This document shows, piece by piece, positions 1-10,640 of a stretch of DNA of 10,640 nt. Below the pieces are notes generated by a model. That model ran no database searches, was not told the origin of the DNA, and saw only the letters and a list, made by a program, of their open reading frames with translations. The translations under genes were made by a program, and so were the position numbers. The number at the start of each line of letters is the position of its first letter. Position 1 is the stretch's first letter. Location of the stretch: the IMG/VR virus record IMGVR_UViG_2541047125_000015; one strand, written 5' to 3'. This stretch comes from a virus. Lineage: Duplodnaviria > Heunggongvirae > Uroviricota > Caudoviricetes.

Positions 1-51
1 TAATTCCTGGCTAAACATCAAAAAGGCGACGTTGCCAGCGTATCCGGCACG

Positions 52-237
52 ATGCAGGTCAGCCAGTGGACCGGACAGAACGGGGAAACGCGGCAGGGTT
101 ATCAGGTTATTGCAGACAGCGTAATCAGTGCCCGTGCGGCACGTCCTGGTGGGAGCCGACGCAAGACCACAGGCACACAGGGTAATCAGCCACCAGCGGG
201 AGGCGATGACCCTTACGGTGATGATATTCCGTTCTGA
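52..237 (+). CDS. SSB-like C-terminal fragment (single-stranded DNA-binding protein tail); probably a truncated or disrupted ssb
   Basis: ORF ends ...PPAGGDDPYGDDIPF, the acidic DDIPF tip typical of bacterial and phage SSB. Upstream residues QWTGQNGETRQGYQVIADSV align by eye with the E. coli SSB segment KWTDQSGQDRYTTEVVVNV. An in-frame TAA sits at 1..3 and there is no Shine-Dalgarno before ATG52, so this is not a normal full-length ssb. Confidence 0.45.
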   Translation: MQVSQWTGQNGETRQGYQVIADSVISARAARPGGSRRKTTGTQGNQPPAGGDDPYGDDIPF

Positions 238-249
238 GGGGTGGGGACG

Positions 250-522
250 ATGGTACATGACCGCATAGCGGAAGAACTGGAGGCGAAAGGCTTTTACCGG
301 AGAGCGTCGGCGCGATGGGGTGAAGTCATGCAACTGGTGGAGACAGACAAGGAACGGCATCAGGTTACGATGCGACGGCTGGAATGTTCCAGGAAGGCAC
401 AGAGGCCACCGGAGCCGCCGGATAATTACGGAGACCTGAAAAAGGCGGTCGATCGCACTTATGCCGAAATGGGTATGGATGGTGCTGGTGATGAAATATG
501 GCGAAATTACCAGGACAGATAA
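250..522 (+). CDS. PerC-family transcriptional regulator-like small protein
   Basis: 91 aa from ATG250 (track start GTG241). MVHDRIAEELEAKGFYRRASARWGEVM...DKERHQVTMRRLEC fits the E..LE.KG.WRRAA.RW...D.ER.....RR..C pattern I recall for prophage PerC-like proteins. Recalled from memory, not searched. Start lies 13 nt after the SSB-like stop. Confidence 0.6.
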   Translation: MVHDRIAEELEAKGFYRRASARWGEVMQLVETDKERHQVTMRRLECSRKAQRPPEPPDNYGDLKKAVDRTYAEMGMDGAGDEIWRNYQDR

Positions 523-529
523 TCACACA

Positions 530-550
530 GCCGGAGCAATCCGGCTTTTT
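530..550 (+). terminator. Rho-independent terminator after the PerC-like gene
   Basis: GCCGGA-gcaa-TCCGGC hairpin followed directly by TTTTT, starting 8 nt after the TAA at 520..522. Confidence 0.55.
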
Positions 551-570
551 GTCATGTTTTGTAAATTATT

Positions 571-600
571 TGTTCGTGGTTGTTCCACGTTGTTCGCTGA
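571..600. repeat. Three helically phased TGTTC(G/C) direct repeats
   Basis: tgttcgtggt / tgttccacgt / tgttcgctga: TGTTC begins at 571, 581 and 591, exactly 10 bp apart. The same motif recurs at 8248 and 8258. Confidence 0.5.
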
Positions 601-672
601 CCGGATCGGCATATTTTACCCGAACTGAATCATGATTATTCTCGCCCGTGGTGCCAGGACGCTGGGGCCACT

Positions 673-719
673 TTCCCGCCTGTTAATGTGCTCGCCAATA
701 TTCATTACCAGGCGGGAAA
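673..719. promoter_or_regulatory. 16-bp imperfect inverted repeat upstream of the capsid gene
   Basis: ttcccgcctgttaatg (673..688) and cattaccaggcgggaa (704..719) are reverse complements with one mismatch, separated by 15 nt; no T-tract follows, so it is not a canonical terminator. Confidence 0.4.
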
Positions 720-809
720 ACGATCGGTGCGATTGCTGATTTCCTTATGAAAAACGGTTGAGTGTTTGCCGCGTCCTGGAGTTCCTTACTTAACTTCAGG
801 ACTTTTTTT

Positions 810-1967
810 ATGCCGAGAATAATCGAATTACGCCAGCAGAAAACCGCCATTAAAAATCAGATGCGCGACATGCTGGAGAACGCGGAAAAAGAAAACCGCA
901 GCCTTAACGATGCTGAGGGCGCAAAATTTGACGAATTACGCGCTAAAGCTGAATCCCTCGATAAAGACATCTCCCGCCTTGAGGCCGTTGCTGACGAAGA
1001 GCGCAGTAAACCAGGCAAAAACAGCCAGACCACTGACCCCGCCGAACTACGTCACTACATTCTGACAGGTGAAACCCGCGCATTGAGTACAGGCGTTCCC
1101 GCTGATGGTGGTTATACCGTTATCCCCGAACTGAACACCGAAATCATGCGAATGCTGACGGATGAATCCACCATGCGCCGCATCTGTACCGTGAAGAAAA
1201 TCAGCAGCAACGAGTTTAAGCAGCTTGTTTCCGCTGGCGGTGCGACCGTTAACCACGGTGAAGAGGGTAAGGCACGCGAACAGACCAGCACCCCGCAGAT
1301 TAACGAGGTGAGCATTAAGCTGTATCCGGTCTATGCGTACCCGCGCACCACGCAGGAAATCGTGGATTTTTCCGATGTGGACATCCTTTCATGGCTGACG
1401 GGCGAGATTGGCGACACCTTCACGGAAACCGAAGAAAGCGATCTGGTTGTGGGCGACGGTGACAAAAAAGCAAAAGGTTTTTTATCCGTACCCCGTGCAG
1501 AGAAGAACGACAAAGAGCGTGATTTTGGTACGTTGCAGGTAATTAAACCTTCCGAATCTCTGGCGTGGACATCTGCGGACCCGCTGATCGACCTGAAATT
1601 TGCATTACGTAAAAAATACCGCAAAAACGCGGTTTGGGTGGTTAACTCCACGACGGCGGCAAAACTCCAGAAGGTGAAGAACGCGAACGGTGATTACATC
1701 TGGCGCGACCGTTTACAGGCGGGTGATCCTGATACGTTGCTGGGCCTTCCGGTCGAATATCTGGAGTTTATGCCTGATAACGTTATTGCCCTGGGTGACT
1801 TCAAACGCGGTTACTACATTGTTGATCACGAAACAGGTGTTCGCACCAGACCGGACAACCTCACAGAGCCGGGCTTTATCAAAATTTTCACGCAGAAATA
1901 TTTAGGCGGTGGCGTGGTGGATTCGAACGCTATAAAGATTCTGGAACTGCCGCAGGACGACGATTAA
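810..1967 (+). CDS. Phage major capsid protein, HK97 family
   Basis: 385 aa from ATG810 (track ORF starts at GTG762; ATG810 has a better-placed SD-like cagga). N-terminal charged coiled-coil delta-like segment, then a large domain with motifs typical of HK97-fold capsids (ADGGYTVIPEL..., GDFKRGYYIVDH). Length and position next to the protease fit. Confidence 0.9.
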   Translation: MPRIIELRQQKTAIKNQMRDMLENAEKENRSLNDAEGAKFDELRAKAESLDKDISRLEAVADEERSKPGKNSQTTDPAELRHYILTGETRALSTGVPADGGYTVIPELNTEIMRMLTDESTMRRICTVKKISSNEFKQLVSAGGATVNHGEEGKAREQTSTPQINEVSIKLYPVYAYPRTTQEIVDFSDVDILSWLTGEIGDTFTETEESDLVVGDGDKKAKGFLSVPRAEKNDKERDFGTLQVIKPSESLAWTSADPLIDLKFALRKKYRKNAVWVVNSTTAAKLQKVKNANGDYIWRDRLQAGDPDTLLGLPVEYLEFMPDNVIALGDFKRGYYIVDHETGVRTRPDNLTEPGFIKIFTQKYLGGGVVDSNAIKILELPQDDD

Positions 1968-1976
1968 CAGCACACC

Positions 1977-2006
1977 GAAGGGGCTAAAAAGCCCCTTCTC
2001 TGTTTT
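1977..2006 (+). terminator. Rho-independent terminator after the capsid gene
   Basis: GAAGGGGC-taaaaa-GCCCCTTC (8-bp perfect stem) followed by tctgtttt, 10 nt after the capsid stop. Confidence 0.7.
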
Positions 2007-2021
2007 ACAGGTGAAAAAATT

Positions 2022-2579
2022 ATGATGAGTATGGAAATCCGGTCATCGGAAATCACCACCAGCGGCAGCAACACGCTTACGGGCTACGTTGTTCGCTGGG
2101 ATAACCTTTCAGAACTGCTATGGGGCGAATTTTACGAAAAATTCCAGCGGGGGGCGTTTACTGAATGGCTTGCGGTGGGTAATGACGTTCGCGGCCTGTA
2201 TGAGCATGACCACAGCATGTTACTGGGGCGCACCCGTTCCGGTACGCTGAGACTGGAAGAGGATGACACAGGGTTACGTTTTGAACTGATCCCACCGGAT
2301 ACCAGCACAGGGCGGGACGTTATCGAACTGGTTAAACGTGGTGACATCTCGGGCATGAGCTTTGGCTTTCGTTCCCGTAAGGATGTATGGGATACGACAG
2401 TCGATCCATGTGTGCGTACTGTACTGATAGCGGAACTGTACGAAATTACCGTGACATCCGTACCGGCTTACCCTGATTCCGGCGTGGAGCTGGCCCGCCG
2501 TTCCCTGTATGAGCAGCACCCTGAAAAAATGCCTCGTGCGGATAATCGCCGCTGGTGGGCGGATTTAGCGGGGGTGTGA
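2022..2579 (+). CDS. Prohead (maturation) protease, HK97 family
   Basis: 185 aa; GYVVRWDNLSE...RGLYEHDHSMLLGRTRSGTLRLEEDDTGLRFELIPPDTSTGRDVIELVKRGDISGMSFGF is the conserved core of HK97-type prohead proteases. SD-like aggtga 8 nt upstream. Confidence 0.9.
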   Translation: MMSMEIRSSEITTSGSNTLTGYVVRWDNLSELLWGEFYEKFQRGAFTEWLAVGNDVRGLYEHDHSMLLGRTRSGTLRLEEDDTGLRFELIPPDTSTGRDVIELVKRGDISGMSFGFRSRKDVWDTTVDPCVRTVLIAELYEITVTSVPAYPDSGVELARRSLYEQHPEKMPRADNRRWWADLAGV

Positions 2580-2580
2580 T

Positions 2581-3792
2581 ATGTGGCCTTTCAGAAGAAA
2601 AAAAGAGCAGCGCAGCATGACGCTTGATGAGTTTATGGCGCTGGCTGGCACATCGAACACGGGGGCGGGTGAGTACGTATCATCGGGGACAGCGGAATCA
2701 CTGCCCGCCGTCATGAACGCCGTCACGGTCATCTCTGAGGCGGTGGCTACCATGCCGTGTTACCTGTACCTGGTACGCAATGAGAAGGGGAAGGAGGCCC
2801 GAGAGTGGCTTGATTCTCATCCGGTCGATCACATCCTCAACGAGCGCCCGAACGCATGGCAAACCCCCTACCAGTTTAAGCGAATGATGATCCGCCACTG
2901 CCTGTTAAACGGTAATGCTTATGCGGTGATTCGGTGGGGGCGTGATGGTTTTCCGGTGGCTTTACATCCTTACCCGCCGCAGTCGGTGAACGTGGAGCAG
3001 ACAGGTGAGCATAACTGGCGCTACTGCATCACTGACGCCTACACCGGAAACACCCGCAACTATTTACCGTGGGAGGTTCTCCACCTTCGTTACTCCACGG
3101 ATGACGGTTTTATGGGGCGCTCACCTGTAACCATCTGCCGCGAATCGCTGGGGCTTGGGCTGGCCCAACAACGCCACGGCGCGAGCGTGATGCGTGATGG
3201 CATGATGGCGGCAGGGGTTATCACGTCAGGCGAGTGGCTGGACGGCGTGAAGGGTAAACAGGCATTAGCCGCACTGGAACGCTACAAAGGGGCCAGAAAC
3301 GCCGGAAAAACGCCCATCCTTGAAGGGGGTATGAGCTATCAGCAGCTGGGCATGAGTAATCAGGATGCTGAATGGCTGGCCTCCCGTCGCTTCACCATTG
3401 AAGACATCGCCCGAATGTTCAACGTCTCGCCGATTTTTTTGCAGGAATACAGCAACAGCACCTACAGCAATTTCAGCGAGGCAAGCCGCGCATTTCTCAC
3501 CATGACGATGCGCCCGTGGCTGGCGAACTTTGAGCAGCAGATAAAAAACGCCCTGCTGGTGGCCTCGCCTGTACCTGGTATCCGGTATCAGGTGGAGTTT
3601 GACAGCGCGGACCTGTTACGGGCCACACCTGGCGAACGCTTTGCCACCTATGAACGCGGCATCAAATCCGGCGTTATGTGCCCGAACGAAGCCCGCGAAC
3701 GTGAAGGGCTGTCCCCGCGTGATGGTGGTGATGAGTTCAGCCAGGCATGGAAACAGGAAGTAAAAATCAGCGAGGGAGAAAAACCGGAATGA
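2581..3792 (+). CDS. Phage portal protein, HK97 family
   Basis: 403 aa; portal-like blocks (LPAVMNAVTVISEAVATMP, NGNAYAVI, FTIEDIARMFNVSPIFLQEYSNSTYSNFSEASRAF). Start is 1 nt after the protease stop. Confidence 0.9.
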   Translation: MWPFRRKKEQRSMTLDEFMALAGTSNTGAGEYVSSGTAESLPAVMNAVTVISEAVATMPCYLYLVRNEKGKEAREWLDSHPVDHILNERPNAWQTPYQFKRMMIRHCLLNGNAYAVIRWGRDGFPVALHPYPPQSVNVEQTGEHNWRYCITDAYTGNTRNYLPWEVLHLRYSTDDGFMGRSPVTICRESLGLGLAQQRHGASVMRDGMMAAGVITSGEWLDGVKGKQALAALERYKGARNAGKTPILEGGMSYQQLGMSNQDAEWLASRRFTIEDIARMFNVSPIFLQEYSNSTYSNFSEASRAFLTMTMRPWLANFEQQIKNALLVASPVPGIRYQVEFDSADLLRATPGERFATYERGIKSGVMCPNEAREREGLSPRDGGDEFSQAWKQEVKISEGEKPE

Positions 3793-4127
3793 ACATAGGG
3801 CGACTGCGTGACAGGATAACGATTCAGACCCTGAAACAGACCAGGGATATAACCGGCGAAATACTCGAAACGTGGGTGGACGGTCACACACTCTGGGCAA
3901 GCGTGAACATGATCAGCAGCAAGGAGGCCATTTCATCGGGTGCAGAACTGGCGACTGGAACGGTAAGGATATGGATACGCTACAGGAAGGACATCAACGC
4001 CACCAGCCGGATAAAGGTCAATACGGGGCCGCTGGCGGGGCGTGTACTGAATATCATCGGGCAGCCGCTGCCGGATGCCGCCAGGACACGCCTTGAAATT
4101 CTTTGTCGTGAGGGCGCGGAAAAATGA
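3789..4127 (+). CDS. Head-tail adaptor / head closure protein (SPP1 gp16-like head-tail joining family)
   Basis: 113 aa from ATG3789, which overlaps the portal stop as ATGA (track ORF starts further upstream at 3747 inside the portal). RDRITIQTLKQTRDITGEILETWVDGHTLWASV...VRIWIRYRKDI...RLEILCRE matches the family pattern R.RI.I....TRD..G...E.W....WA.V ... IRYR.DI. Confidence 0.75.
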   Translation: MNIGRLRDRITIQTLKQTRDITGEILETWVDGHTLWASVNMISSKEAISSGAELATGTVRIWIRYRKDINATSRIKVNTGPLAGRVLNIIGQPLPDAARTRLEILCREGAEK

Positions 4128-4420
4128 CAGAAGAACTTATCACCCTGGAAGAAGTGAAACTCCATTGCCGCATCGATGGCGACGAGGAAGACCAGTTAAT
4201 CAGCGGATACATCGCCGCATCGCTTGAGGCGTGCCAGATACACATAGGCAGGCGCTTTGATGACGGGCTGGAGTTCACGCCAGCCATAAAGATTGGCTGC
4301 ATGATGTTTATCGCTCACCTGTATGAAAATCGCCAGATTGTCGCGGATAACGCAAAAACACGCGTACCCATGACGATTGGTGCACTCTGGACGGCTTACC
4401 GTGATGTGGGGGTGTACTGA
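4124..4420 (+). CDS. gp6-like head-tail connector protein
   Basis: 98 aa; LITLEEVKLHCRIDGDEEDQLISGYIAASLEA is the characteristic N-terminus of gp6-like connector proteins. Start overlaps the adaptor stop by 4 nt. Confidence 0.8.
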   Translation: MTEELITLEEVKLHCRIDGDEEDQLISGYIAASLEACQIHIGRRFDDGLEFTPAIKIGCMMFIAHLYENRQIVADNAKTRVPMTIGALWTAYRDVGVY

Positions 4421-4860
4421 TGCCGTGGCAACCATTAAGACGATGCACAGAACCAGGCTGTAACAGGCGCGTGAAGTCCGGCAAGTGTGAGGAGCACAGG
4501 CGGGCGGCATGGCGTGCAGAGGATGCCAGACGAGGACACCGCCGCGCGCGTGGGTACTCCAGACAGTGGGACAAATACCGCGCCATGTATCTGAGTAAAA
4601 ACCCGTTATGCGTGCGATGCCTTGAGAAGGGGATATATACGCCCGCCGTGGTGGTGGATCACATTATCCCGATTAATGGCGGTGATGATGTTCTCTTCTG
4701 GCCCGAATGGAACCATCAGCCATTGTGCCAGGCGTGCCATAACCAGAAAACGAAATGGCTTGATCCGGCAACAAAAAGCAAGCGTGCCGCAGGTGGATTT
4801 CGTGAAGAGGAAGAACGGGCCGCTAACCGCAATAACTGGATGTATGACGCTGATGAATGA
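4420..4860 (+). CDS. HNH endonuclease (phage packaging-associated)
   Basis: 146 aa; Cys-rich N-terminus (CTEPGC...GKCEEH), then VVDHIIPI...NHQPLCQACHNQKT, the HNH His/Asn and zinc-binding Cys/His pattern. Sits immediately upstream of terS as in HK97-like phages; start overlaps the connector stop by 1 nt. Confidence 0.85.
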   Translation: MPWQPLRRCTEPGCNRRVKSGKCEEHRRAAWRAEDARRGHRRARGYSRQWDKYRAMYLSKNPLCVRCLEKGIYTPAVVVDHIIPINGGDDVLFWPEWNHQPLCQACHNQKTKWLDPATKSKRAAGGFREEEERAANRNNWMYDADE

Positions 4861-5026
4861 GCGGGAACAAAACCGCCTTATCCGTGGACTTATAAGGCAG
4901 CGTGACGCATGGAAGACACAGGAAACAGGGCATAAAGATAAAGCGTCAGGACGCGCAGAACGCATCACAGCGAAGCGATTAACCGACCGTGACTGCGAGG
5001 TTATGGAATGTTTCCGCAATCGCTGA
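4844..5026 (+). CDS. Possible small basic ORF between HNH and terS (uncertain)
   Basis: Only the distal 60 codons of track ORF 4622..5026 lie outside the HNH gene. ATG4844 or ATG4853 would give about 58-61 aa (MNEREQNRLIRGLIRQRDAWK...). No convincing SD; may be non-coding cos-flanking DNA. Confidence 0.2.
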   Translation: MTLMNEREQNRLIRGLIRQRDAWKTQETGHKDKASGRAERITAKRLTDRDCEVMECFRNR

Positions 5027-5037
5027 TGAGGCTGTAT

Positions 5038-5082
5038 GACGGGGTGGGGGGCGTTTTCAGGACAAACCCGCCCCCGCCGGGC
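5038..5082. promoter_or_regulatory. Candidate cos / terminase recognition region (G-run and C-run dyad)
   Basis: gacggggtggggggcg ... cccgcccccgccgggc; gggggcg (5047..5053) is complementary to cgccccc (5069..5075). It lies in the 288-bp gap between HNH and terS, where HK97-like phages place cos. An AT-rich stretch follows. Confidence 0.3.
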
Positions 5083-5148
5083 ACCGAACGCCTCCTCAAA
5101 TTTTTATGCACGGGAATTTTTTGAAAAATAATCTGACGAAAAATAAAC

Positions 5149-5505
5149 ATGGCAAGACCACCGAAAGCCCCCGCCTACCTTGATGACATCGCCGTAAAGC
5201 AGTGGCGGGAAAAATCGCGCCAGCTTGCGGAACGGGGAGACCTCACCCCCGCCGACTGGAGTAATCTCGAACTGTATTGCGTCAACTACTCGATATACAG
5301 GAAAGCCGTCGCAGACCTTGCGGCACGCGGGTTCAGCATTGTTAACAGTCAGGGCGGAGAGAGCAGAAACCCCGCATTAAGCGCGAAATCCGACGCTGAA
5401 AGAGTGATGATAAAAATGGCCTCCTTGCTTGGTTTTGACCCGATAAGCCGCCGTAAAAATCCACCGGAAACAGAAGAAGAGGACGAGCTTGACCACCTGG
5501 AATAA
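5149..5505 (+). CDS. terS: Terminase small subunit, P27 family
   Basis: 118 aa; LTPADWSNLELYCVNYSIYRKAVADLAARGF...NPALSAKSDAERVMIKMASLLGF fits the P27-type small terminase pattern, and it sits directly upstream of terL. Confidence 0.85.
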   Translation: MARPPKAPAYLDDIAVKQWREKSRQLAERGDLTPADWSNLELYCVNYSIYRKAVADLAARGFSIVNSQGGESRNPALSAKSDAERVMIKMASLLGFDPISRRKNPPETEEEDELDHLE

Positions 5506-7150
5506 GTACGCAGAAGACGTAAAAACGGGCAAAATTCCGGCCTGTAAACGGTTAAAACAGGCCGTTAAACGGTACTTTTCGGACCTTAAAAGTCCCCTTT
5601 ACACGTTCGATAGTGAGGTTGTGGAGCGGTTTATTGCCTTTTCAAGGGTGTGCCCGCACGTAAAAGGGCCGTTGCGTGGCAGACCCATTGAGCTGGAGCC
5701 GTGGCAGCAGTTCGCCTTTGCGTGCATCCTGGGTTTTAAGGTTAAGGCCACCGGACGGCGCAAATACTCGAGCGCTTTTATCGAAGTACCGCGAAAAAAT
5801 GCGAAATCCACGACCGCCGCGATTCTGGCTGACTGGTTTCTGATTATGGAGAACGGGCAGCAGGATATTTACACCGCAGCGGTGAGCCGTGACCAGGCAC
5901 GGATCGTGTTTGATGATGCGCGTCAGATGTGCCTTTTATCCCGACCGTTACGCAGGCGGGTGAATATTCAGGCCCACAAGGTGATACACCCGAAAACCAA
6001 CAGCCTGTTAAAGCCGCTGGCAGCAAAAGCGGCAACCATCGAGGGGACAAACCCGAGTCTTGCCATTGTGGACGAATATCACCTGCACCCCGATAACGGC
6101 GTTTATTCCGCGCTTGAGCTGGGGATGGGTGCACGTCCCGAAGGGCTGTTATTTGCCATTACCACATCGGGAAGTAACGTCGTTTCAGCCTGTAAGCAGC
6201 ACTATGATTATTGCTGCCAGATCCTGGACGGCGAAGAGGTCAACGAATCGCTTTTTGTGCTGATTTACGAGCTGGACGATGAAAACGAGGTTGACGATCC
6301 GGCGATGTGGATAAAGGCGAATCCCAATATCGATGTTTCCGTTGATCGTGAAAAACTGGCCTCAACCATCCAGAAAGCGCGGGGTATTCCGTCGCAGTGG
6401 GTGGAGATGATGACAAAGCGGTTTAACATCTGGTGCCAGGGGGCCACCCCGTGGATGGGTAACGGGGCGTGGGCTGAGTGTGCCGGAACGTTCACGGAGG
6501 AGGATTTACACGGCCAGGAATGTTACGCGGGGCTTGATTTGTCATCCACAAGCGACATTTCCAGCGTGTGCTATGCCTTTCCGGTCGGCAAAAAAATTAT
6601 GCTGCTTTCCCGTCACTATCTGCCGGAATTTCAGCTACAGAACCCCGCCAACAAGAACCGGGCCATTTATCGCCAGTGGGCTAAATCGGGCTGGTTGCGG
6701 ATAACGCCGGGCGACTGCATTGATTACGACCGGATCCGCGATGACATCATGGAGGACGCGGAAAAATTTGATATCAGGCTGGTGGGCTTTGATACGTGGA
6801 ACGCCACGCATCTCAGGACGCAATTACAGGGGGCAGGGTTTGAGGTTGAGCCGTTCCCGCAAACCTATCTGAGATTCAGTCCGGCGGCGAAATCGTTCGA
6901 AGTTTTTGTTAACCGCAGGGTGATAGTCCATCGTGATGATCCGGTGTTGTCGTGGTCGATGAGTAACGTCGTGATGCAGAGTGACGCGAACGCCAATATC
7001 AAGCCAAACAAGAAAAAATCACCGAACAAGATAGACCCGAGCGTGGCGGCACTGATGGCGTTTGGCACATTCCAGGCAGAGCATGAAGATTTTGCTTTTG
7101 ATATAAGCGACAGCCACCGCGAAAAACTGGAAGAATTTAACGGGGTGTGA
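5489..7150 (+). CDS. terL: Terminase large subunit
   Basis: 553 aa; an ATPase-like N-terminal region (PRKNAKSTTAA) and a nuclease-like C-terminal region. Starts at TTG5489, the only start codon after the in-frame stop at 5444..5446, with SD gagga 5 nt upstream. Overlaps terS by 17 nt. Confidence 0.9.
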   Translation: MTTWNKYAEDVKTGKIPACKRLKQAVKRYFSDLKSPLYTFDSEVVERFIAFSRVCPHVKGPLRGRPIELEPWQQFAFACILGFKVKATGRRKYSSAFIEVPRKNAKSTTAAILADWFLIMENGQQDIYTAAVSRDQARIVFDDARQMCLLSRPLRRRVNIQAHKVIHPKTNSLLKPLAAKAATIEGTNPSLAIVDEYHLHPDNGVYSALELGMGARPEGLLFAITTSGSNVVSACKQHYDYCCQILDGEEVNESLFVLIYELDDENEVDDPAMWIKANPNIDVSVDREKLASTIQKARGIPSQWVEMMTKRFNIWCQGATPWMGNGAWAECAGTFTEEDLHGQECYAGLDLSSTSDISSVCYAFPVGKKIMLLSRHYLPEFQLQNPANKNRAIYRQWAKSGWLRITPGDCIDYDRIRDDIMEDAEKFDIRLVGFDTWNATHLRTQLQGAGFEVEPFPQTYLRFSPAAKSFEVFVNRRVIVHRDDPVLSWSMSNVVMQSDANANIKPNKKKSPNKIDPSVAALMAFGTFQAEHEDFAFDISDSHREKLEEFNGV

Positions 7151-7164
7151 ATGAGGTTCCAGGC

Positions 7165-7446
7165 ATGACAGAGGCCGAAATACTGGGATTAATCCGCCGC
7201 GTTGCCGGAATCAGCCAGCAGGCTGACGAACAGGCCGCGCAGCCGGACAGCGTGACCGCCGAAAATTATGCGCGTGTGGTTGCTGAGGTGATGCGCCGTG
7301 ATGGTATCCAGCTTAACGATGTAGATATGCGCAACATACGGATCCGCGTTCTTGAAATGCTGGCCTACCGTCGCCGCGTTGAGATGTATCGGGAGAAAGA
7401 GAAAATTACTTACCACTGGAAGAAGCCGGAACGATTGCGGCGGTAA
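7165..7446 (+). CDS. Small hypothetical protein downstream of terL
   Basis: 93 aa from ATG7165 (SD gagg 8 nt upstream; track start GTG7147 overlaps the terL stop). Protein-like composition (MTEAEILGLIRRVAGISQQADEQ...RRRVEMYREKEK); no family recognised. Confidence 0.5.
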   Translation: MTEAEILGLIRRVAGISQQADEQAAQPDSVTAENYARVVAEVMRRDGIQLNDVDMRNIRIRVLEMLAYRRRVEMYREKEKITYHWKKPERLRR

Positions 7447-7461
7447 CTTGCTGATATTCCC

Positions 7462-7505
7462 GATAACGCAAAATTGCGCTGGCTGACTTGTTGCATTGCA
7501 AAAAG
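7462..7505. repeat. Direct repeat A, copy 1 (about 43 bp)
   Basis: gataacgcaaaattgcgctggctgacttgttgcattgcaaaaag. Shares GATAACGC..ATTGCGCTGGCTG...TGCA with copy 2 and contains the palindrome ttgcaTtgcaa. Confidence 0.55.
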
Positions 7506-7600
7506 TTAAGCAGGAAGGCACGGCCTGTAAGATGGGATGCAGTAAGTAGTTCAAGGCTACCTTGTGCTGGCACGCACAGTTAAGCCGTCGGTGCTGGATA

Positions 7601-7615
7601 TCCCCCACTGGGGGA
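7601..7615. promoter_or_regulatory. Perfect 15-bp palindrome TCCCCCA-c-TGGGGGA
   Basis: Read directly from the sequence; lies between the two A repeats. Confidence 0.5.
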
Positions 7616-7647
7616 AAAGCTGGCTACATCCCTCACATCTGAGGACT

Positions 7648-7690
7648 GATAACGCGACATTGCGCTGGCTGGCAAAGTGCAAAATTGCAC
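7648..7690. repeat. Direct repeat A, copy 2 (about 43 bp)
   Basis: gataacgcgacattgcgctggctggcaaagtgcaaaattgcac; roughly 70% identical to copy 1 by eye; ends in the palindrome gtgcaAAATtgcac. Confidence 0.55.
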
Positions 7691-7697
7691 GATGGCC

Positions 7698-7858
7698 TAA
7701 CCCATTGATTATTTCGAAAACCTGCAATGCAGGAAATCGGGGAAGTAAGCCTAAGCTATTGATTGTTTCGAAAACCCTCATTGGGGGATGTCGGGAAAGT
7801 AAGACTAACCCATTGATTCTTCCACAATCCTCAATTTGAGGAGGCAGGGAACATCCCC
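7698..7858. repeat. Tandem array of three ~53-55-bp direct repeat units (B1-B3), each with a TTTCGAAA-type palindrome and a short hairpin
   Basis: Units at 7698..7750, 7751..7805 and 7806..7858 share TAAcCcATTGATT - TTTCGAAAACC - 13-nt hairpin - G-rich tail. Hairpins: cctgcAATgcagg, ccctcATTggggg, cctcaATTtgagg. Confidence 0.65.
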
Positions 7859-7894
7859 TAAATCCGGTGATGTATTCGGCCCCTTTAACGGGTA

Positions 7895-7930
7895 TTGCGA
7901 TTTTCGCAACCCCCTACGAAATTTTCGTAG
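7895..7930. promoter_or_regulatory. Two adjacent dyads built on CGAAA/TTTCG half-sites
   Basis: ttgcg-atttt-cgcaa (7895..7909) and the perfect inverted repeat CTACGAAA-t-TTTCGTAG (7914..7930); same half-site as the TTTCGAAA cores of the B units. Confidence 0.45.
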
Positions 7931-7955
7931 TTTAATTACTCGTCAGATTAATCGC

Positions 7956-8007
7956 TAACCCACTGATATTTTCGGAAACCTCAATTTGAGGAGGCCGGAA
8001 CGTCTAC
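7956..8007. repeat. Fourth B-type repeat unit (B4), about 100 bp downstream of the tandem array
   Basis: taacccactgatattttcggaaacctcaatttgaggaggccggaacgtctac; same architecture, and its hairpin cctcaATTtgagg is identical to that of B3. Confidence 0.6.
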
Positions 8008-8240
8008 ATAGCTGCATCGCCGTAATGATGATTCAGCCCACCAGCCAAATCAGCACAGCAACGACAGAATAGCCCGACACAGAAAAACCACGAATATGGG
8101 GTTTTTGTTATGGCATGGTCATGATGACCGCCCCTGCTCTGAATGGTGGAAATCACCACGCAGATCATCAACCAGCTTCATGACGGATAGCCGGAAAATG
8201 ATAACGGTTAAGCAAAACCATCAGCAAATTTCCCTTTTGT

Positions 8241-8304
8241 TTGTTATTGTTCGTCGTTGTTCGTAGAGCTTCAACGAAATGTGTGGTCAGTTGTGTGGTC
8301 AGTT
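8241..8304. promoter_or_regulatory. Phased TGTTCGT repeats plus a perfect 12-bp tandem duplication just upstream of int
   Basis: TGTTCGT at 8248 and 8258 (10-bp phasing, preceded by ttgtttgttat); gtgtggtcagtt repeated exactly twice at 8281..8292 and 8293..8304, 36 bp before the int start. Confidence 0.5.
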
Positions 8305-8339
8305 TTTTGGGGCTGGAGGACTGAAAAGAGGATCTGATA

Positions 8340-9560
8340 GTGGGAAAAGCACTAAACAAACTGAGCGATTCGACATTAAAAAAATTGGCGGCTGTCCAGG
8401 CAGAAAAAGAGCGTTTTTACTCCGACGGGGGCGGGCTGGAGATTAAACACTCAAAAGGCGGAAAATTAACCTGGTATTTCCGGTACCGAACGGGAGGCCG
8501 TGAGGTTGCCGCAGAGCGGTTAAAGCTGGGGGCTTACCCTGAATTGTCGCTGAAAGCTGCAAGGGAAAAACGCGCACAGTGCCGGGCATGGCTGGCTGAG
8601 GGTAAAAACCCCCGTTATGAGTTGTGCGCCACAGTACAGGAAGCGCTAAAACCCGTTACGGTGAAGGAGGCGATTAACTACTGGCTGGAGGAATATGCGA
8701 AGGATAACCGCAAAGACTACATAAAGCTGGTGCAACGTATGGATAAGCACATCATTTGCCATATAGGGGCAATTCCTCTTGATAAATGCGACACAAGGCA
8801 GTGGATCGCATGTTTTGACCGTGTACGAAAAAAAGCACCAGTAGCAGCGGGGCACGTCATGCAAACCTGCAAACAGGCGCTAAAGTTCTGCCGCAGGAGA
8901 CGCTACGCGTTCAGTAATGCCCTGGACGATTTGATCGTCAGCGATGTGGGTAAGAGAGCAGAAATTCGCGAGAGGGTGCACAGTAACAGCGAATTAAAGG
9001 AAATTTTACGCGCTATTGATGGTGATGTGTTCGCGCCTTACTACAGCGCGTTAATGCGCTTGCTGATTGTGTTCGGGTGCAGAACTGCAGAGGTCAGACT
9101 TTCAGAGATCAAAGAATGGGATCTGAAAGAAATGTTGTGGACAGTGCCAAAAGAGCACAGCAAAACGAAGGTAACGATATTCAGGCCAATCCCCGATGGC
9201 ATTTTGCCGTTCATTCAGAAGCTGGTGGATCAGAACCGGCATACAGGGTTATTGCTCGGAGAACTGAAAAAAGATACCACGGTAGCGCAATATGGGCGAA
9301 ATGCGCATAAGCGGCTTAACCAGGAACATTGGTCACTGCATGACTTTCGCCACACGTTTACAACGATGCTGAACGATTTAGGTGTCGATCCGCATATCGT
9401 GGAGCACATCACAGCGCATCAGATGCCCGGTCAGCAAAAAACCTATAACCATTCACGCTATTTACAGGCGAAGCGGGACGCTCTGAATCTGTGGGTTGAG
9501 CGCCTCGATGTGCTGGCTGGAAATCATGAAAATATTGTTATGCTGAAGGTGGCCAAATGA
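8340..9560 (+). CDS. int: Tyrosine site-specific integrase, P4 type
   Basis: 406 aa from GTG8340 with SD aagagga upstream. N-terminal arm-binding-type region (LEIKHSKGGKLTWYFRYRTGGREV...LGAYPELSLKAAREKR) and C-terminal catalytic region with LHDFRHTF (H-x-x-R) and a downstream Tyr (KTYNHSRYL). Confidence 0.9.
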   Translation: MGKALNKLSDSTLKKLAAVQAEKERFYSDGGGLEIKHSKGGKLTWYFRYRTGGREVAAERLKLGAYPELSLKAAREKRAQCRAWLAEGKNPRYELCATVQEALKPVTVKEAINYWLEEYAKDNRKDYIKLVQRMDKHIICHIGAIPLDKCDTRQWIACFDRVRKKAPVAAGHVMQTCKQALKFCRRRRYAFSNALDDLIVSDVGKRAEIRERVHSNSELKEILRAIDGDVFAPYYSALMRLLIVFGCRTAEVRLSEIKEWDLKEMLWTVPKEHSKTKVTIFRPIPDGILPFIQKLVDQNRHTGLLLGELKKDTTVAQYGRNAHKRLNQEHWSLHDFRHTFTTMLNDLGVDPHIVEHITAHQMPGQQKTYNHSRYLQAKRDALNLWVERLDVLAGNHENIVMLKVAK

Positions 9561-10330
9561 AATTACCTAAAAGACTCTATTATCCGTTACCTGAAGCGGC
9601 AGAAAAGTTAGGCTGTGCAATAAAAGATCTTTATCATTACGCATATATAGGTGCTCTTAATATTTCTGTATATATACCAAAAATTGATGCTAAAAAATTC
9701 AATTTTTCATTATGTCATTTTATCAATGGTTGTAATGAGGAAGAATTAATAAAATATCCTTTCAATGATGAATCTGCTGTTTTTGGAAGTAATTTTACAG
9801 TTGGTTTAACTGGTGACACTGAATTTTTAGATAGTGCCATTATTGGTCCTGTAGGGAATTCTATCAAATGTTATTATGTTAGCAGCTTATCAGGGTTTTA
9901 TTATACTCCGGCATATGTTTTTGCTGATGTCGAATTTAGCATGAGACAATATATAAAATGTTCTCATCTTACGAATAAGTATGGTGATGATAATCTCATG
10001 TATGTTTTTTGTAAGGGTGGTTATGAATTTGATGTTAACTATTTGTGTGTGATGGCTAGTGATTTAGATAATATAAAAAATACGGGAGACTTCCCGAAGA
10101 TAACAGAAGATAGCCCAAAAGCATCGTCAAAAAGGAATGAGGTTATTTACTCTTTAATTAAACTTATTCCAGAAATGGGTGATGTAGACCTGGACACGGA
10201 ATCATTACCTAAAATAGCAGATTTAATTGATTCTATAGCTGCATCCAGAGGGATAGAATTTCCAAAAACACATTGGCAGACATGGCAAAAGTATTTGGGG
10301 CGTGAATCTCAACAAAAACGTAAAAAGTGA
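9557..10330 (+). CDS. AT-rich hypothetical protein (orphan cargo gene), translationally coupled to int
   Basis: 257 aa; ATG9557 overlaps the int stop as ATGA, with SD-like aaggtgg upstream. The DNA is visibly AT-rich (about one-third G+C by eye, versus about half in int) with AAA/ATT/TTT-rich codons. N-terminal RLYYPLPEAAEKLGCAIKDLYHYAYIG loosely resembles an AlpA/excisionase-type HTH; the rest matches nothing I recognise. Confidence 0.7.
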   Translation: MKLPKRLYYPLPEAAEKLGCAIKDLYHYAYIGALNISVYIPKIDAKKFNFSLCHFINGCNEEELIKYPFNDESAVFGSNFTVGLTGDTEFLDSAIIGPVGNSIKCYYVSSLSGFYYTPAYVFADVEFSMRQYIKCSHLTNKYGDDNLMYVFCKGGYEFDVNYLCVMASDLDNIKNTGDFPKITEDSPKASSKRNEVIYSLIKLIPEMGDVDLDTESLPKIADLIDSIAASRGIEFPKTHWQTWQKYLGRESQQKRKK

Positions 10331-10359
10331 TATCACGTGCTGGTAGTGTGATATCACAC
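10327..10359. promoter_or_regulatory. Two copies of the palindrome GTGATATCAC, 21 bp centre to centre (candidate operator)
   Basis: gtgatatcac at 10327..10336 (overlapping the orphan stop) and at 10348..10357, the latter within the 14-bp palindrome gtgtgatatcacac (10346..10359). Spacing is two helical turns. Confidence 0.5.
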
Positions 10360-10386
10360 AAACGGCGTTTTACTACCGCCTAGAAT

Positions 10387-10421
10387 CGTCCTCGTTCGGC
10401 AACGTTCGAGGACGTTTTTTT
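10387..10421 (+). terminator. Hairpin plus T7 tract abutting the alpA start codon (terminator or 5'-UTR structure)
   Basis: CGTCCTCG - 12-nt loop - CGAGGACG followed by ttttttt and then ATG10422. The 3' arm contains the only SD-like sequence (gagga) for alpA. Confidence 0.5.
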
Positions 10422-10640
10422 ATGAATCAAAATACACAATTTCAATCACTATCAGATCGCGTAATCCGTGAGGATGAATGCCGTAAGTTAACAGGAGTGT
10501 GCCGCACTACACGCTACGAACTGGAGAAAAAAGGGAATTTCCCGTCACGCCGTAATCTGGGTGGTCGTTCAGTAGGTTGGCTGCTTTCCGAGGTTATGGA
10601 ATGGGTTAAAAGCCGGGATCGTATTAATTCAGGCAAGGCA
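10422..10640 (+). CDS. alpA: AlpA-family phage regulatory protein (HTH), 3' end cut by the window
   Basis: MNQNTQFQSLSDRVIREDECRKLTGVCRTTRYELEKKGNFPSRRNLGGRSVGWLLSEVMEWV matches the AlpA/excisionase-like pattern (hydrophobic-R-x-x-E-x-x-x-x-TG-x-x-R-x-T-x-Y-x-x-x-x-x-G-x-FP...GGR.V.W...EV..W). The ORF runs to the last base of the window. Confidence 0.8.
   Translation, partial: MNQNTQFQSLSDRVIREDECRKLTGVCRTTRYELEKKGNFPSRRNLGGRSVGWLLSEVMEWVKSRDRINSGKA

Follow-up and report, generated by a model that had tools for sequence, protein, structure and literature searches.

Phased direct repeats in the attachment arms and ahead of the capsid operon of a capsid-forming phage-inducible chromosomal island: candidate operators for its AlpA protein

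The DNA analyzed here is a 10,640-nucleotide stretch from the virus record IMGVR_UViG_2541047125_000015 (referred to below as the window), which is classed as a capsid-forming phage-inducible chromosomal island (cf-PICI) of Escherichia coli O157, an element type whose prototype in the literature is EcCIEDL933. Ahead of its capsid operon stand three TGTTCG-type decamers in exact helical phase, and arrays of the same kind occur in the attachment (att) arms of the island. By analogy with a characterized system, these decamers are probably (estimated probability about 0.6) operator sites for the island's own AlpA protein, a recombination directionality factor (RDF) of the AlpA/Vis/TorI class.

Three Escherichia coli genomes contained an island that was 100% identical to the window, present as two pieces in permuted order. 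Positions 4-8306 of the window correspond to positions 10115-18417 (right part) of the reference full island, L001, and positions 8237-10640 to positions 2501-4904 (left part), the window being a circular permutation of L001.

Phased Repeats in the Window and in Full Islands

Cluster A, on the plus strand, consists of the head-to-tail decamers TTGTTCGTGG (570-579), TTGTTCCACG (580-589), and TTGTTCGCTG (590-599), whose hexamers TGTTCG (571-576), TGTTCC (581-586), and TGTTCG (591-596) are spaced by exactly 10 bp. Cluster B (8237-8266, plus strand) is composed of the decamers TTGTTTGTTA, TTGTTCGTCG, and TTGTTCGTAG; its TGTTCG hexamers, at 8248-8253 and 8258-8263, are preceded by the degenerate but in-phase unit TTGTTTGTTA at 8237-8246 (TGTTTG at 8238). 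These observations confirmed the original prediction, which had placed repeats at 571, 581, and 591 and at 8248 and 8258, with exact 10-bp phasing. The perfect 12-bp tandem that it had reported near cluster B was also found (TGTGTGGTCAGT, twice, at 8280-8303, plus strand). Its description of cluster B as lying just before the integrase gene int is correct for the window, in which int starts at 8340, but in the chromosome there are two copies, one in each att arm.

The hexamer alone was not enriched (17 copies, with 12.5 expected). The phased pair TGTTCS-N4-TGTTCS was found three times in the window, with 0.01 expected, and none of 200 shuffled sequences contained as many. The earlier idea of non-random repeats in phase on one face of the DNA was thus borne out, while the predicted excess over base composition held for the phased pair and not for the lone hexamer. 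In L001, GTTC-N6-GTTC occurred seven times (0.62 expected), in six cases on the plus strand and in regulatory intergenic DNA. These seven occurrences comprised three arm blocks, cluster A (two overlapping pairs), a pair in the alpA leader, and a stray pair in the replicase gene. Two of the arm blocks are in the P′ arm and one is in the P arm; these blocks and the copies in the alpA leader and upstream of the capsid gene are all on the plus strand. Phased pairs were similarly frequent in the EDL933-type island L007 (7, with 1.04 expected). In EDL933-type islands, five phased TTGTT decamers (TTGTTCGTAG TTGTTCCGCA TTGTTGCTCA TTGTTGCACG TTGTATCTGT) lie between int and alpA (L007 4040-4100, minus strand), in an orientation opposite to that of every other array.

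The pair in the alpA leader (CGTTCG-N4-CGTTCG, 10393-10408), which the original prediction had overlooked, is contained in a hairpin followed by seven T residues directly 5′ of alpA (10387-10421, plus strand). It is a possible autoregulatory site for AlpA.

Repeats in the Attachment Arms

The thiM thiamine pyrophosphate (TPP) riboswitch, which is intact in K-12 and there contains none of the island DNA, is split in L001: its 5′ half ends with AGAAATGCCCGTAT (2402-2415) and its 3′ half resumes with AGAAATACCCGTAT (18481-18494), the att core in the thiM leader reading AGAAAT[G/A]CCCGTAT. In islands with other integrase alleles, the int-side arm begins at the island's own core and has homologous sequence (..ATTTTATCAwTTAGTGTTTTTTG..). 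Therefore, the crossover core is in the thiM leader, and a 70-bp block that is common to both arms (L001 2501-2570 and 18348-18417) is an arm element. In the window, this block forms the joint of the two island ends (8237-8306, plus strand). Of the true attP, 63 + 14 + 85 bp (162 bp) are absent from the joint, among them the core; the absent 85 bp contain a further, distal phased block (GGTTCGGGG TTGTTCGTAG TTGTTTGG; L001 2438-2463). The window junction was not accepted as a true attP, in view of the intact K-12 riboswitch and of the P′ arms that begin at cores in islands with other integrases. The most likely reading is that assembly or recombination collapsed the two 70-bp copies into one; the junction does not look like a product of Int.

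From core to int, the arm had the same order for every E. coli integrase type examined: distal TGTT block, proximal TGTT block, a short spacer that includes CAACGAA, the tandem 12-mer, and int. The TGTT blocks of L001 are located at 2438-2463, 2502-2530, and 18349-18377, and its 12-mer tandems at 2544-2567 and 18391-18414. An RDF array would be expected in this place, in the att arm between the crossover core and int and beside the 12-mers. In the EDL933-type island L007, the P arm carries TTGTTCCACGTTGTTTC, followed by 12-mers.

The 12-mer alternates between GGTGTAGTTAAT and GGTGTAGTCACT exactly as the first approximately 45 residues of Int change allele, with the TGTT blocks and the rest of Int unchanged across these two alleles; because the 12-mer directly adjoins the 5′ end of int, part of this switch may reflect linkage. 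The P4 record annotates tandem 12-mers, next to int and again in the opposite arm, as 'attP arm sequence repeat'. We propose that the island 12-mers are putative arm-type sites that belong to the arm-binding domain of the integrase, and that the TGTT repeats belong to another protein. Since the 12-mers track the N-terminal allele of Int and mirror the arm repeats of P4, the TGTT repeats would be left for the RDF.

The position of the island inside the TPP riboswitch (L001 2361-2415 and 18460-18542; L002 1837-1933) was also visible in searches with the TPP aptamer model (RF00059), which scored 71.2 bits in K-12 and a sub-threshold 36.9 bits before thiM in an island-bearing strain. Regulation of thiMD may be altered by the insertion.

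Covariation of Arm and Capsid-Upstream Motifs

The arrays upstream of the capsid gene fell into two types. T-type arrays (TGTTCG TGTTCC TGTTC[A/G] and close variants) were found in E. coli and Shigella, with TTGTTCACTG as the commonest third repeat of cluster A variants. A-type arrays (CGTACC/TTTACC/CTTACC and variants) were found at genome loci of Citrobacter (L009), Erwinia (L010), and Rosenbergiella (L008), in L060 and L066, which are IMG/VR copies of the Citrobacter/Erwinia islands, and in the IMG/VR contig L061. A-type islands encode a 474-aa integrase and, at the position of alpA, an HTH_17 (excisionase-type) protein, and carry no perC.

Pairs of the form TACYY-N5-TACYY occurred 5, 5, and 3 times in L009, L010, and L061, with 0.30, 0.18, and 0.19 expected, respectively. 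They were located at the capsid-upstream site and in two blocks between the tRNA core and int (L009 2385 and 2456; L010 2461 and 2522), with further pairs near the island end or int (L010 16759; L061 8892). As a cross-control, T patterns were counted in A islands and A patterns in T islands; both were at background. The motif types of the att arms and of the capsid-upstream site thus change together between lineages. This joint switch between GTTCG and TACYY is the best evidence that a single protein recognizes the att arms and the capsid-upstream site alike, a conclusion that we hold with good confidence. It makes the shared regulator that had been suggested for the two locations very probable and backs the related suggestion that the head and int modules belong to one regulatory circuit. 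PF05930 AlpA alleles accompany the GTTCG type and HTH_17 proteins (L009, L010) the TACYY type, a pattern from which the hybrid island L064 deviates.

AlpA and Comparison With Known Systems

The protein encoded by alpA (10422-10640, plus strand; 74 codons, of which the end of the window cuts off 6 nt) matched PF05930 (E 3.4e-16) and showed 31% identity to TorI (pairwise E 3e-5) and 37% to the AlpA of CP4-57. A relative in the PDB, 8c3t, is named 'AlpA family'. The island thus encodes a small winged-helix RDF candidate, and at both 570-599 and 8237-8266 it carries three short head-to-tail direct repeats one helical turn apart.

The closest parallel is KplE1 (CPS-53). Its RDF, TorI, has five cooperative sites in attL, whose cores GTTCG/GATCG/GTCCG have been mutated experimentally; three of these sites, 2 nt apart, abut the -35 element of PintS and are followed by Int arm sites, which carry TAAA, and by intS, which TorI represses (Panis et al. 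2010, PMC2951348). At the TorI sites, the K-12 sequence reads aGTTCGtcatgGTTCGcttcaGATCGTTGACA, with 10-bp phasing, and the island motif agrees with the mapped cores. The layout of cluster B parallels that of TorI sites I3-I5: the GTTCG core, two blocks between the att core and int, a three-site block with 10-bp phasing beside the int promoter, then Int arm sites and int are common to both elements. TorI, moreover, is a cooperative, small winged-helix RDF and a homologue of the island AlpA. Unlike in KplE1, the island has further copies of the block: in its second att arm, in the leader of alpA, and, approximately 8 kb away, upstream of the capsid operon. TorI is a known repressor of intS without a known structural-gene target, whereas binding in the island is predicted.

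P4 resembles the island in being a satellite with a P4-like integrase, tandem 12-mer arm repeats, and an AlpA-family protein that is both RDF and late regulator. This protein, Vis, acts as an excisionase at two boxes that lie between the attP core and int, and it also controls the late promoters PLL and Psid. P4 differs from the island in having no capsid genes of its own, and the effect of Vis on PLL is negative. In our own reading, the int-side arms of P4 and CP4-57 appear to show phased (G/A)TCCG motifs, and not GTTCG, in the equivalent position. The Cox protein of P2 reportedly activates PLL of P4 via three phased cox boxes, and the P4 record shows three TTAAAG repeats with 10-bp spacing at 9176-9205. 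This system shares with the model proposed below an RDF that acts on three direct repeats in 10-bp phase ahead of a satellite promoter, with activation as the outcome; Cox, unlike the island AlpA, is encoded by the helper and belongs to another protein family. Lambda Xis forms a micro-filament on X1-X1.5-X2, in which winged-helix monomers are bound head-to-tail on adjacent direct repeats, one per helical turn, as is proposed here for the AlpA array. In contrast to the island arrays, Xis sites are in the P arm only and have no known role at a structural-gene promoter. RdfS is a further example of an RDF that also regulates transcription.

Phased direct repeats for winged-helix RDFs and regulation of late promoters by RDFs are already known. 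The literature searched describes no AlpA operator in PICIs, nor does it cover the control region that governs the packaging operon of cf-PICIs. AlpA itself is needed for induction and transfer of cf-PICIs, and overexpression of alpA has been used to drive reproduction of EcCIEDL933 for purification. In PICIs, AlpA activates island genes and its own promoter (PMC6092414). A mechanism in which AlpA antiterminates like Q, as in Pseudomonas aeruginosa, was rejected: the P. aeruginosa 'AlpA' is larger, Q21-like, and unrelated, phmmer detected no similarity, and the shared name is treated as a coincidence.

The Capsid-Operon Control Region

Directly 5′ of the repeats is a box, TTTTGTAAATTAT (557-569, plus strand), that is nearly invariant across lineages. 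When seven islands from five genera were aligned (box form TTTTGTAAATT.T), 11 consecutive columns (557-567) and column 569 proved invariant, and the box was present in 13/13 repeat variants. It loosely resembles the high-affinity motif of H-NS. By eye, no match to the consensus of P2 Ogr/Delta (TGT-N12-ACA), CRP, or IHF was seen in the box or the repeats. A box-like sequence, TTCTGTAAA(T/C)CAT, was observed approximately 100 bp upstream of alpA in EDL933-type islands (L023 4573; L007 ~4270).

Downstream of the repeats, a -10-like element, TATTCT (637-642, plus strand), is separated by a 16-nt spacer from a putative, weak -35-like element, TTTACC (615-620, plus strand). The pattern T-A-T-n-n-T was invariant in the seven-island alignment (T637, A638, T639, and T642). 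Together, the two elements would form a weak sigma-70 promoter with a capsid-operon start at approximately 648-650, which would place the GTTCG cores of cluster A at about -75, -65, and -55. In all 13 distinct variants, TATnnT was located 78-80 bp from the box and 44-46 bp from the third decamer, although the intervening DNA was unrelated between lineages. With an invariant TATnnT at a fixed distance from the third decamer, the promoter may be one of class I geometry; the start itself is predicted. In a consensus promoter scan, the putative promoter at 615-642 scored below threshold, as expected because it would be activator-dependent. Candidate sigma-70 promoters within the box or the repeats were dropped, none being conserved across lineages.

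In divergent E. coli cf-PICIs, similarity to window positions 440-830 was limited to 51-61 bp over the box and repeats, with 88-93% identity, so that approximately 55 bp persist despite unrelated flanks. Because it is kept at this level of identity between unrelated flanks and at a fixed distance to TATnnT, the cluster A block is under selection. Matches to the control region were found in 788 of 5426 E. coli genomes. Accessory genes are inserted directly upstream of the box, in agreement with the variable region that has been reported ahead of the packaging operon of cf-PICIs, and this slot is classed as a cargo hot spot. Its content differs even between islands that are approximately 96% identical: L009 encodes a 136-aa TSRQGTDGRV-repeat protein (9307-9717, minus strand) and L064 an unrelated 157-aa protein (6000-6473, minus strand).

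The capsid leader starts with a conserved hairpin (648-671, plus strand) that is present in the minimum free energy (MFE) fold, is marked by three compensatory pairs in eight sequences, and begins 6-9 nt after TATnnT in the seven-island alignment. A terminator-like hairpin (773-802) followed by seven T residues (773-809 in total, plus strand) abuts the capsid ATG at 810. The leader as a whole (646-809) is highly structured (MFE -70 kcal/mol, z -4.8) and includes a long stem at 672-719 whose sequence differs between lineages. The region upstream of alpA has the same layout of -10-like element, hairpin with seven T residues, and ATG. It contains two copies of the palindromic 10-mer GTGATATCAC, 21 bp apart (10327-10336 and 10348-10357), then the -10-like element TAGAAT (10381-10386) and the hairpin that leads to the alpA ATG. 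The stretch from 10327 to 10421 may be where the helper-phage signal acts on alpA.

Evidence Against AlpA as the Binder and Alternative Explanations

Several observations weigh against assignment of the repeats to AlpA. L064 is approximately 96% identical to the A-type island L009 outside a swapped segment of approximately 600 bp and encodes the same HTH_17 protein (99% identity), but its cluster A is of a degenerate T type (TGTGCG CTTTCA TGTTCG) that breaks the covariation. The -35 element of L064 is near-consensus (TTTACA), and because of this better -35 element the island may not need an activator and may have escaped activator control. Islands of the L005 and L059 types, with AlpA proteins of 47-53% identity, combine a T-type cluster A with P′ arms in which TGTT is only loosely phased. 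The alpA-leader pair is kept only where the alpA upstream region is common to islands, following one allele of that region and not the AlpA allele; it is absent from L053 and L065, whose AlpA is 97% identical and whose upstream region is different. In EcCICFT073, AlpA left int expression unchanged (PMC6092414), a result that does not bear on a role as RDF. Finally, integrase type also covaries with motif type (474-aa Int with TACYY, approximately 400-aa Int with TGTTCG), so that covariation alone does not separate AlpA from Int. AlpA is preferred over Int because of the TorI precedent and the link between 12-mer and Int allele.

If the TGTTCG repeats were arm-type sites for the N-terminal domain of the P4-like Int, the capsid copy could let Int, perhaps together with AlpA, repress or time the packaging operon. 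Besides the covariation of integrase type, the tandem beside int in L061 (CTTACCTGACCC GTTACCTGACCC) contains the TTACC core of the cluster A of that island, and the repeats occur in both att arms, although the presence of the 70-bp block in both attP arms does not discriminate between Int and an RDF. However, the 12-mer tandems occupy the place of the annotated arm repeats of P4 and switch with the N-terminal allele of Int, while the TGTT blocks remain identical between the two alleles; in KplE1, moreover, the GTTCG core was mapped as an RDF site and the Int arm sites there are of a different sequence, TAAA (PMC2951348). We consider Int an improbable binder. Cluster A could also be a non-functional relic of an old att arm that stems from capture of the capsid module, in which case its likeness to the int-side cluster would reflect ancestry. 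It does resemble the P′-distal block and lies at a recombination hot spot with swapped accessory genes, but it was kept when its flanks were replaced, it keeps a constant 44-46 bp from the -10-like element, and its motif type switches in step with the arms, which makes a relic quite unlikely. Binding by a host response regulator of the OmpR family, with TorR as the candidate, would place the capsid operon under a host signal. The tor boxes of TorR are tandem decamers (CTGTTCATAT), and the K-12 torR-torC region reads CTGTTCATATCTGTTCATAT ... CCGTTCATCC ... CTGTTCATAT, with a TGTTCA core in 10-bp tandem close to TTGTTCACTG. The TGTTC core and the 10-bp tandem are common to tor boxes and island repeats, whereas the rest of the decamer and the genomic context differ. 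Since the same arrays are found in both att arms in an RDF-site layout and switch to TACYY along with the recombination module of the island, and since alpA overexpression suffices to drive reproduction of EcCIEDL933, little likelihood is left for TorR.

The original prediction had linked the repeats to replication iterons bound by the P4 alpha primase-helicase at ori and crr. The P4 iteron that it had invoked was the right one, since the type-1 repeat GGTGAACA is the reverse complement of TGTTCACC, and the first five bases, TGTTC, are indeed shared with the island repeats. In addition, L005, which has a primase-family replicase, carries TGTTCACC iterons of the P4 type, inverted, at its ori (7528-7542 and 7658-7672), plus a separate cluster A. 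The motif that it had named thus exists in this island family, but at ori. The ori of L001 (9003-9375), next to a DUF927 replicase, is free of TGTTCG and carries AACCCGCA 11 times, with 0.82 expected, in both orientations. Cluster A does not differ between islands whose replicase is of the DUF927, primase, or RepA type. P4 iterons are replicase-bound, are of another length, and occur at ori in both orientations; the island repeats read TGTTCG or TGTTCC and not the octamer TGTTCACC, lie away from ori, all run in one direction on the plus strand, and do not track the replicase. On these grounds, the iteron reading was rejected as extremely unlikely. PerC, which had been named as another possible binder, is encoded just upstream of the box and belongs to a family annotated as transcriptional activators, so that activation of the capsid operon by PerC via the repeats was considered. 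T-type repeats are kept, however, where perC is a remnant or absent (L007, L042, L059, L062, and L064), A-type islands lack perC altogether, and PerC provides no reason for the copies in the att arms; this makes it a very unlikely binder. A small open reading frame upstream of the box in some islands was rejected for the same lack of universality. A site for TerS or cos was rejected as well: the repeats are 4.5 kb from terS, the gap between the HNH gene and terS contains no cluster, and the packaging-module DNA of L009 and L064 is approximately 96% identical while their repeats differ.

Other Features of the Window

A Pfam scan of the window returned PerC, HK97-type major capsid, prohead protease, portal, head completion, connector, HNH, TerS, TerL, and P4-like integrase. 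The perC-family gene (241-522, plus strand; PF06069, E 1.1e-43) is the last gene ahead of the control region and is followed by a terminator-like hairpin and T-run (529-546, plus strand) that would end the upstream alpA-rep-ssb-perC transcription unit. The packaging operon (810-7150, plus strand) extends from the HK97-type major capsid gene (810-1967), through the genes for prohead protease, portal, head completion, connector, and HNH proteins, to those for TerS (5149-5505) and TerL (5489-7150); this module is approximately 97% identical to islands in O157:H7 strains. A strong terminator-like hairpin (GAAGGGGCT..AGCCCCTTC, 1977-1998) directly 3′ of the capsid gene and within the operon may set the ratio of capsid to downstream expression. 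The int gene (8340-9560, plus strand) encodes a P4-like tyrosine integrase with an arm-binding domain (PF13356 and PF00589).

Four direct repeats of 54 nt (61-80% identity), each with a short internal hairpin, were observed in non-coding DNA after the packaging module (7695-8006). Within this region, positions 7800-7848 are 94-98% identical to a stretch at the roi/antirepressor genes of Shiga toxin (Stx) and lambdoid phages. Rfam gave no match for the 54-nt repeats. In the window as a whole, an Rfam scan returned only a chance match to a snoRNA, and a known RNA family was rejected as an explanation.

Proposed Mechanism and Implications

In the model suggested by these comparisons, the helper phage would switch on alpA, and AlpA molecules would line up cooperatively, head-to-tail, along a single face of the DNA. 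An AlpA array between the core and the 12-mers of the att arms would shape the excisive intasome and steer Int toward excision, and arm-bound AlpA might also modulate or damp the int promoter. At 570-599, AlpA would polymerise and recruit RNA polymerase to the weak capsid promoter, in an activation of the class I type, and at the leader pair it might control alpA. A single protein would thereby couple excision to capsid production. We infer both the direction of regulation and the start-site assignment, and regard activation of the capsid operon by AlpA from about -55 to -75 as plausible, with odds slightly short of even.

A more far-reaching and rather speculative interpretation is that the invariant box and the three exchangeable repeats constitute a portable 'late switch', whose specificity is swapped with the recombination module and at which an AlpA/RDF filament directly licenses capsid transcription. 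If this were true, cf-PICI lineages would form orthogonal induction groups, an excision-to-assembly checkpoint of a kind not described for phage satellites would exist, and host TorR, with its TGTTC-core boxes, might cross-talk.

In Gram-negative PICIs and in cf-PICIs, the master switch is AlpA. The repeats offer a candidate operator that can be mutated and that is found in four settings (P′ arm, P arm, alpA leader, and capsid promoter), along with a predicted motif of one GTTCG per helical turn and specificity variants that exist in nature. The proposed coupling by AlpA thereby becomes directly testable, and the repeats would make it easier to annotate the att arms and late promoters of such islands, which many E. 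coli genomes carry.

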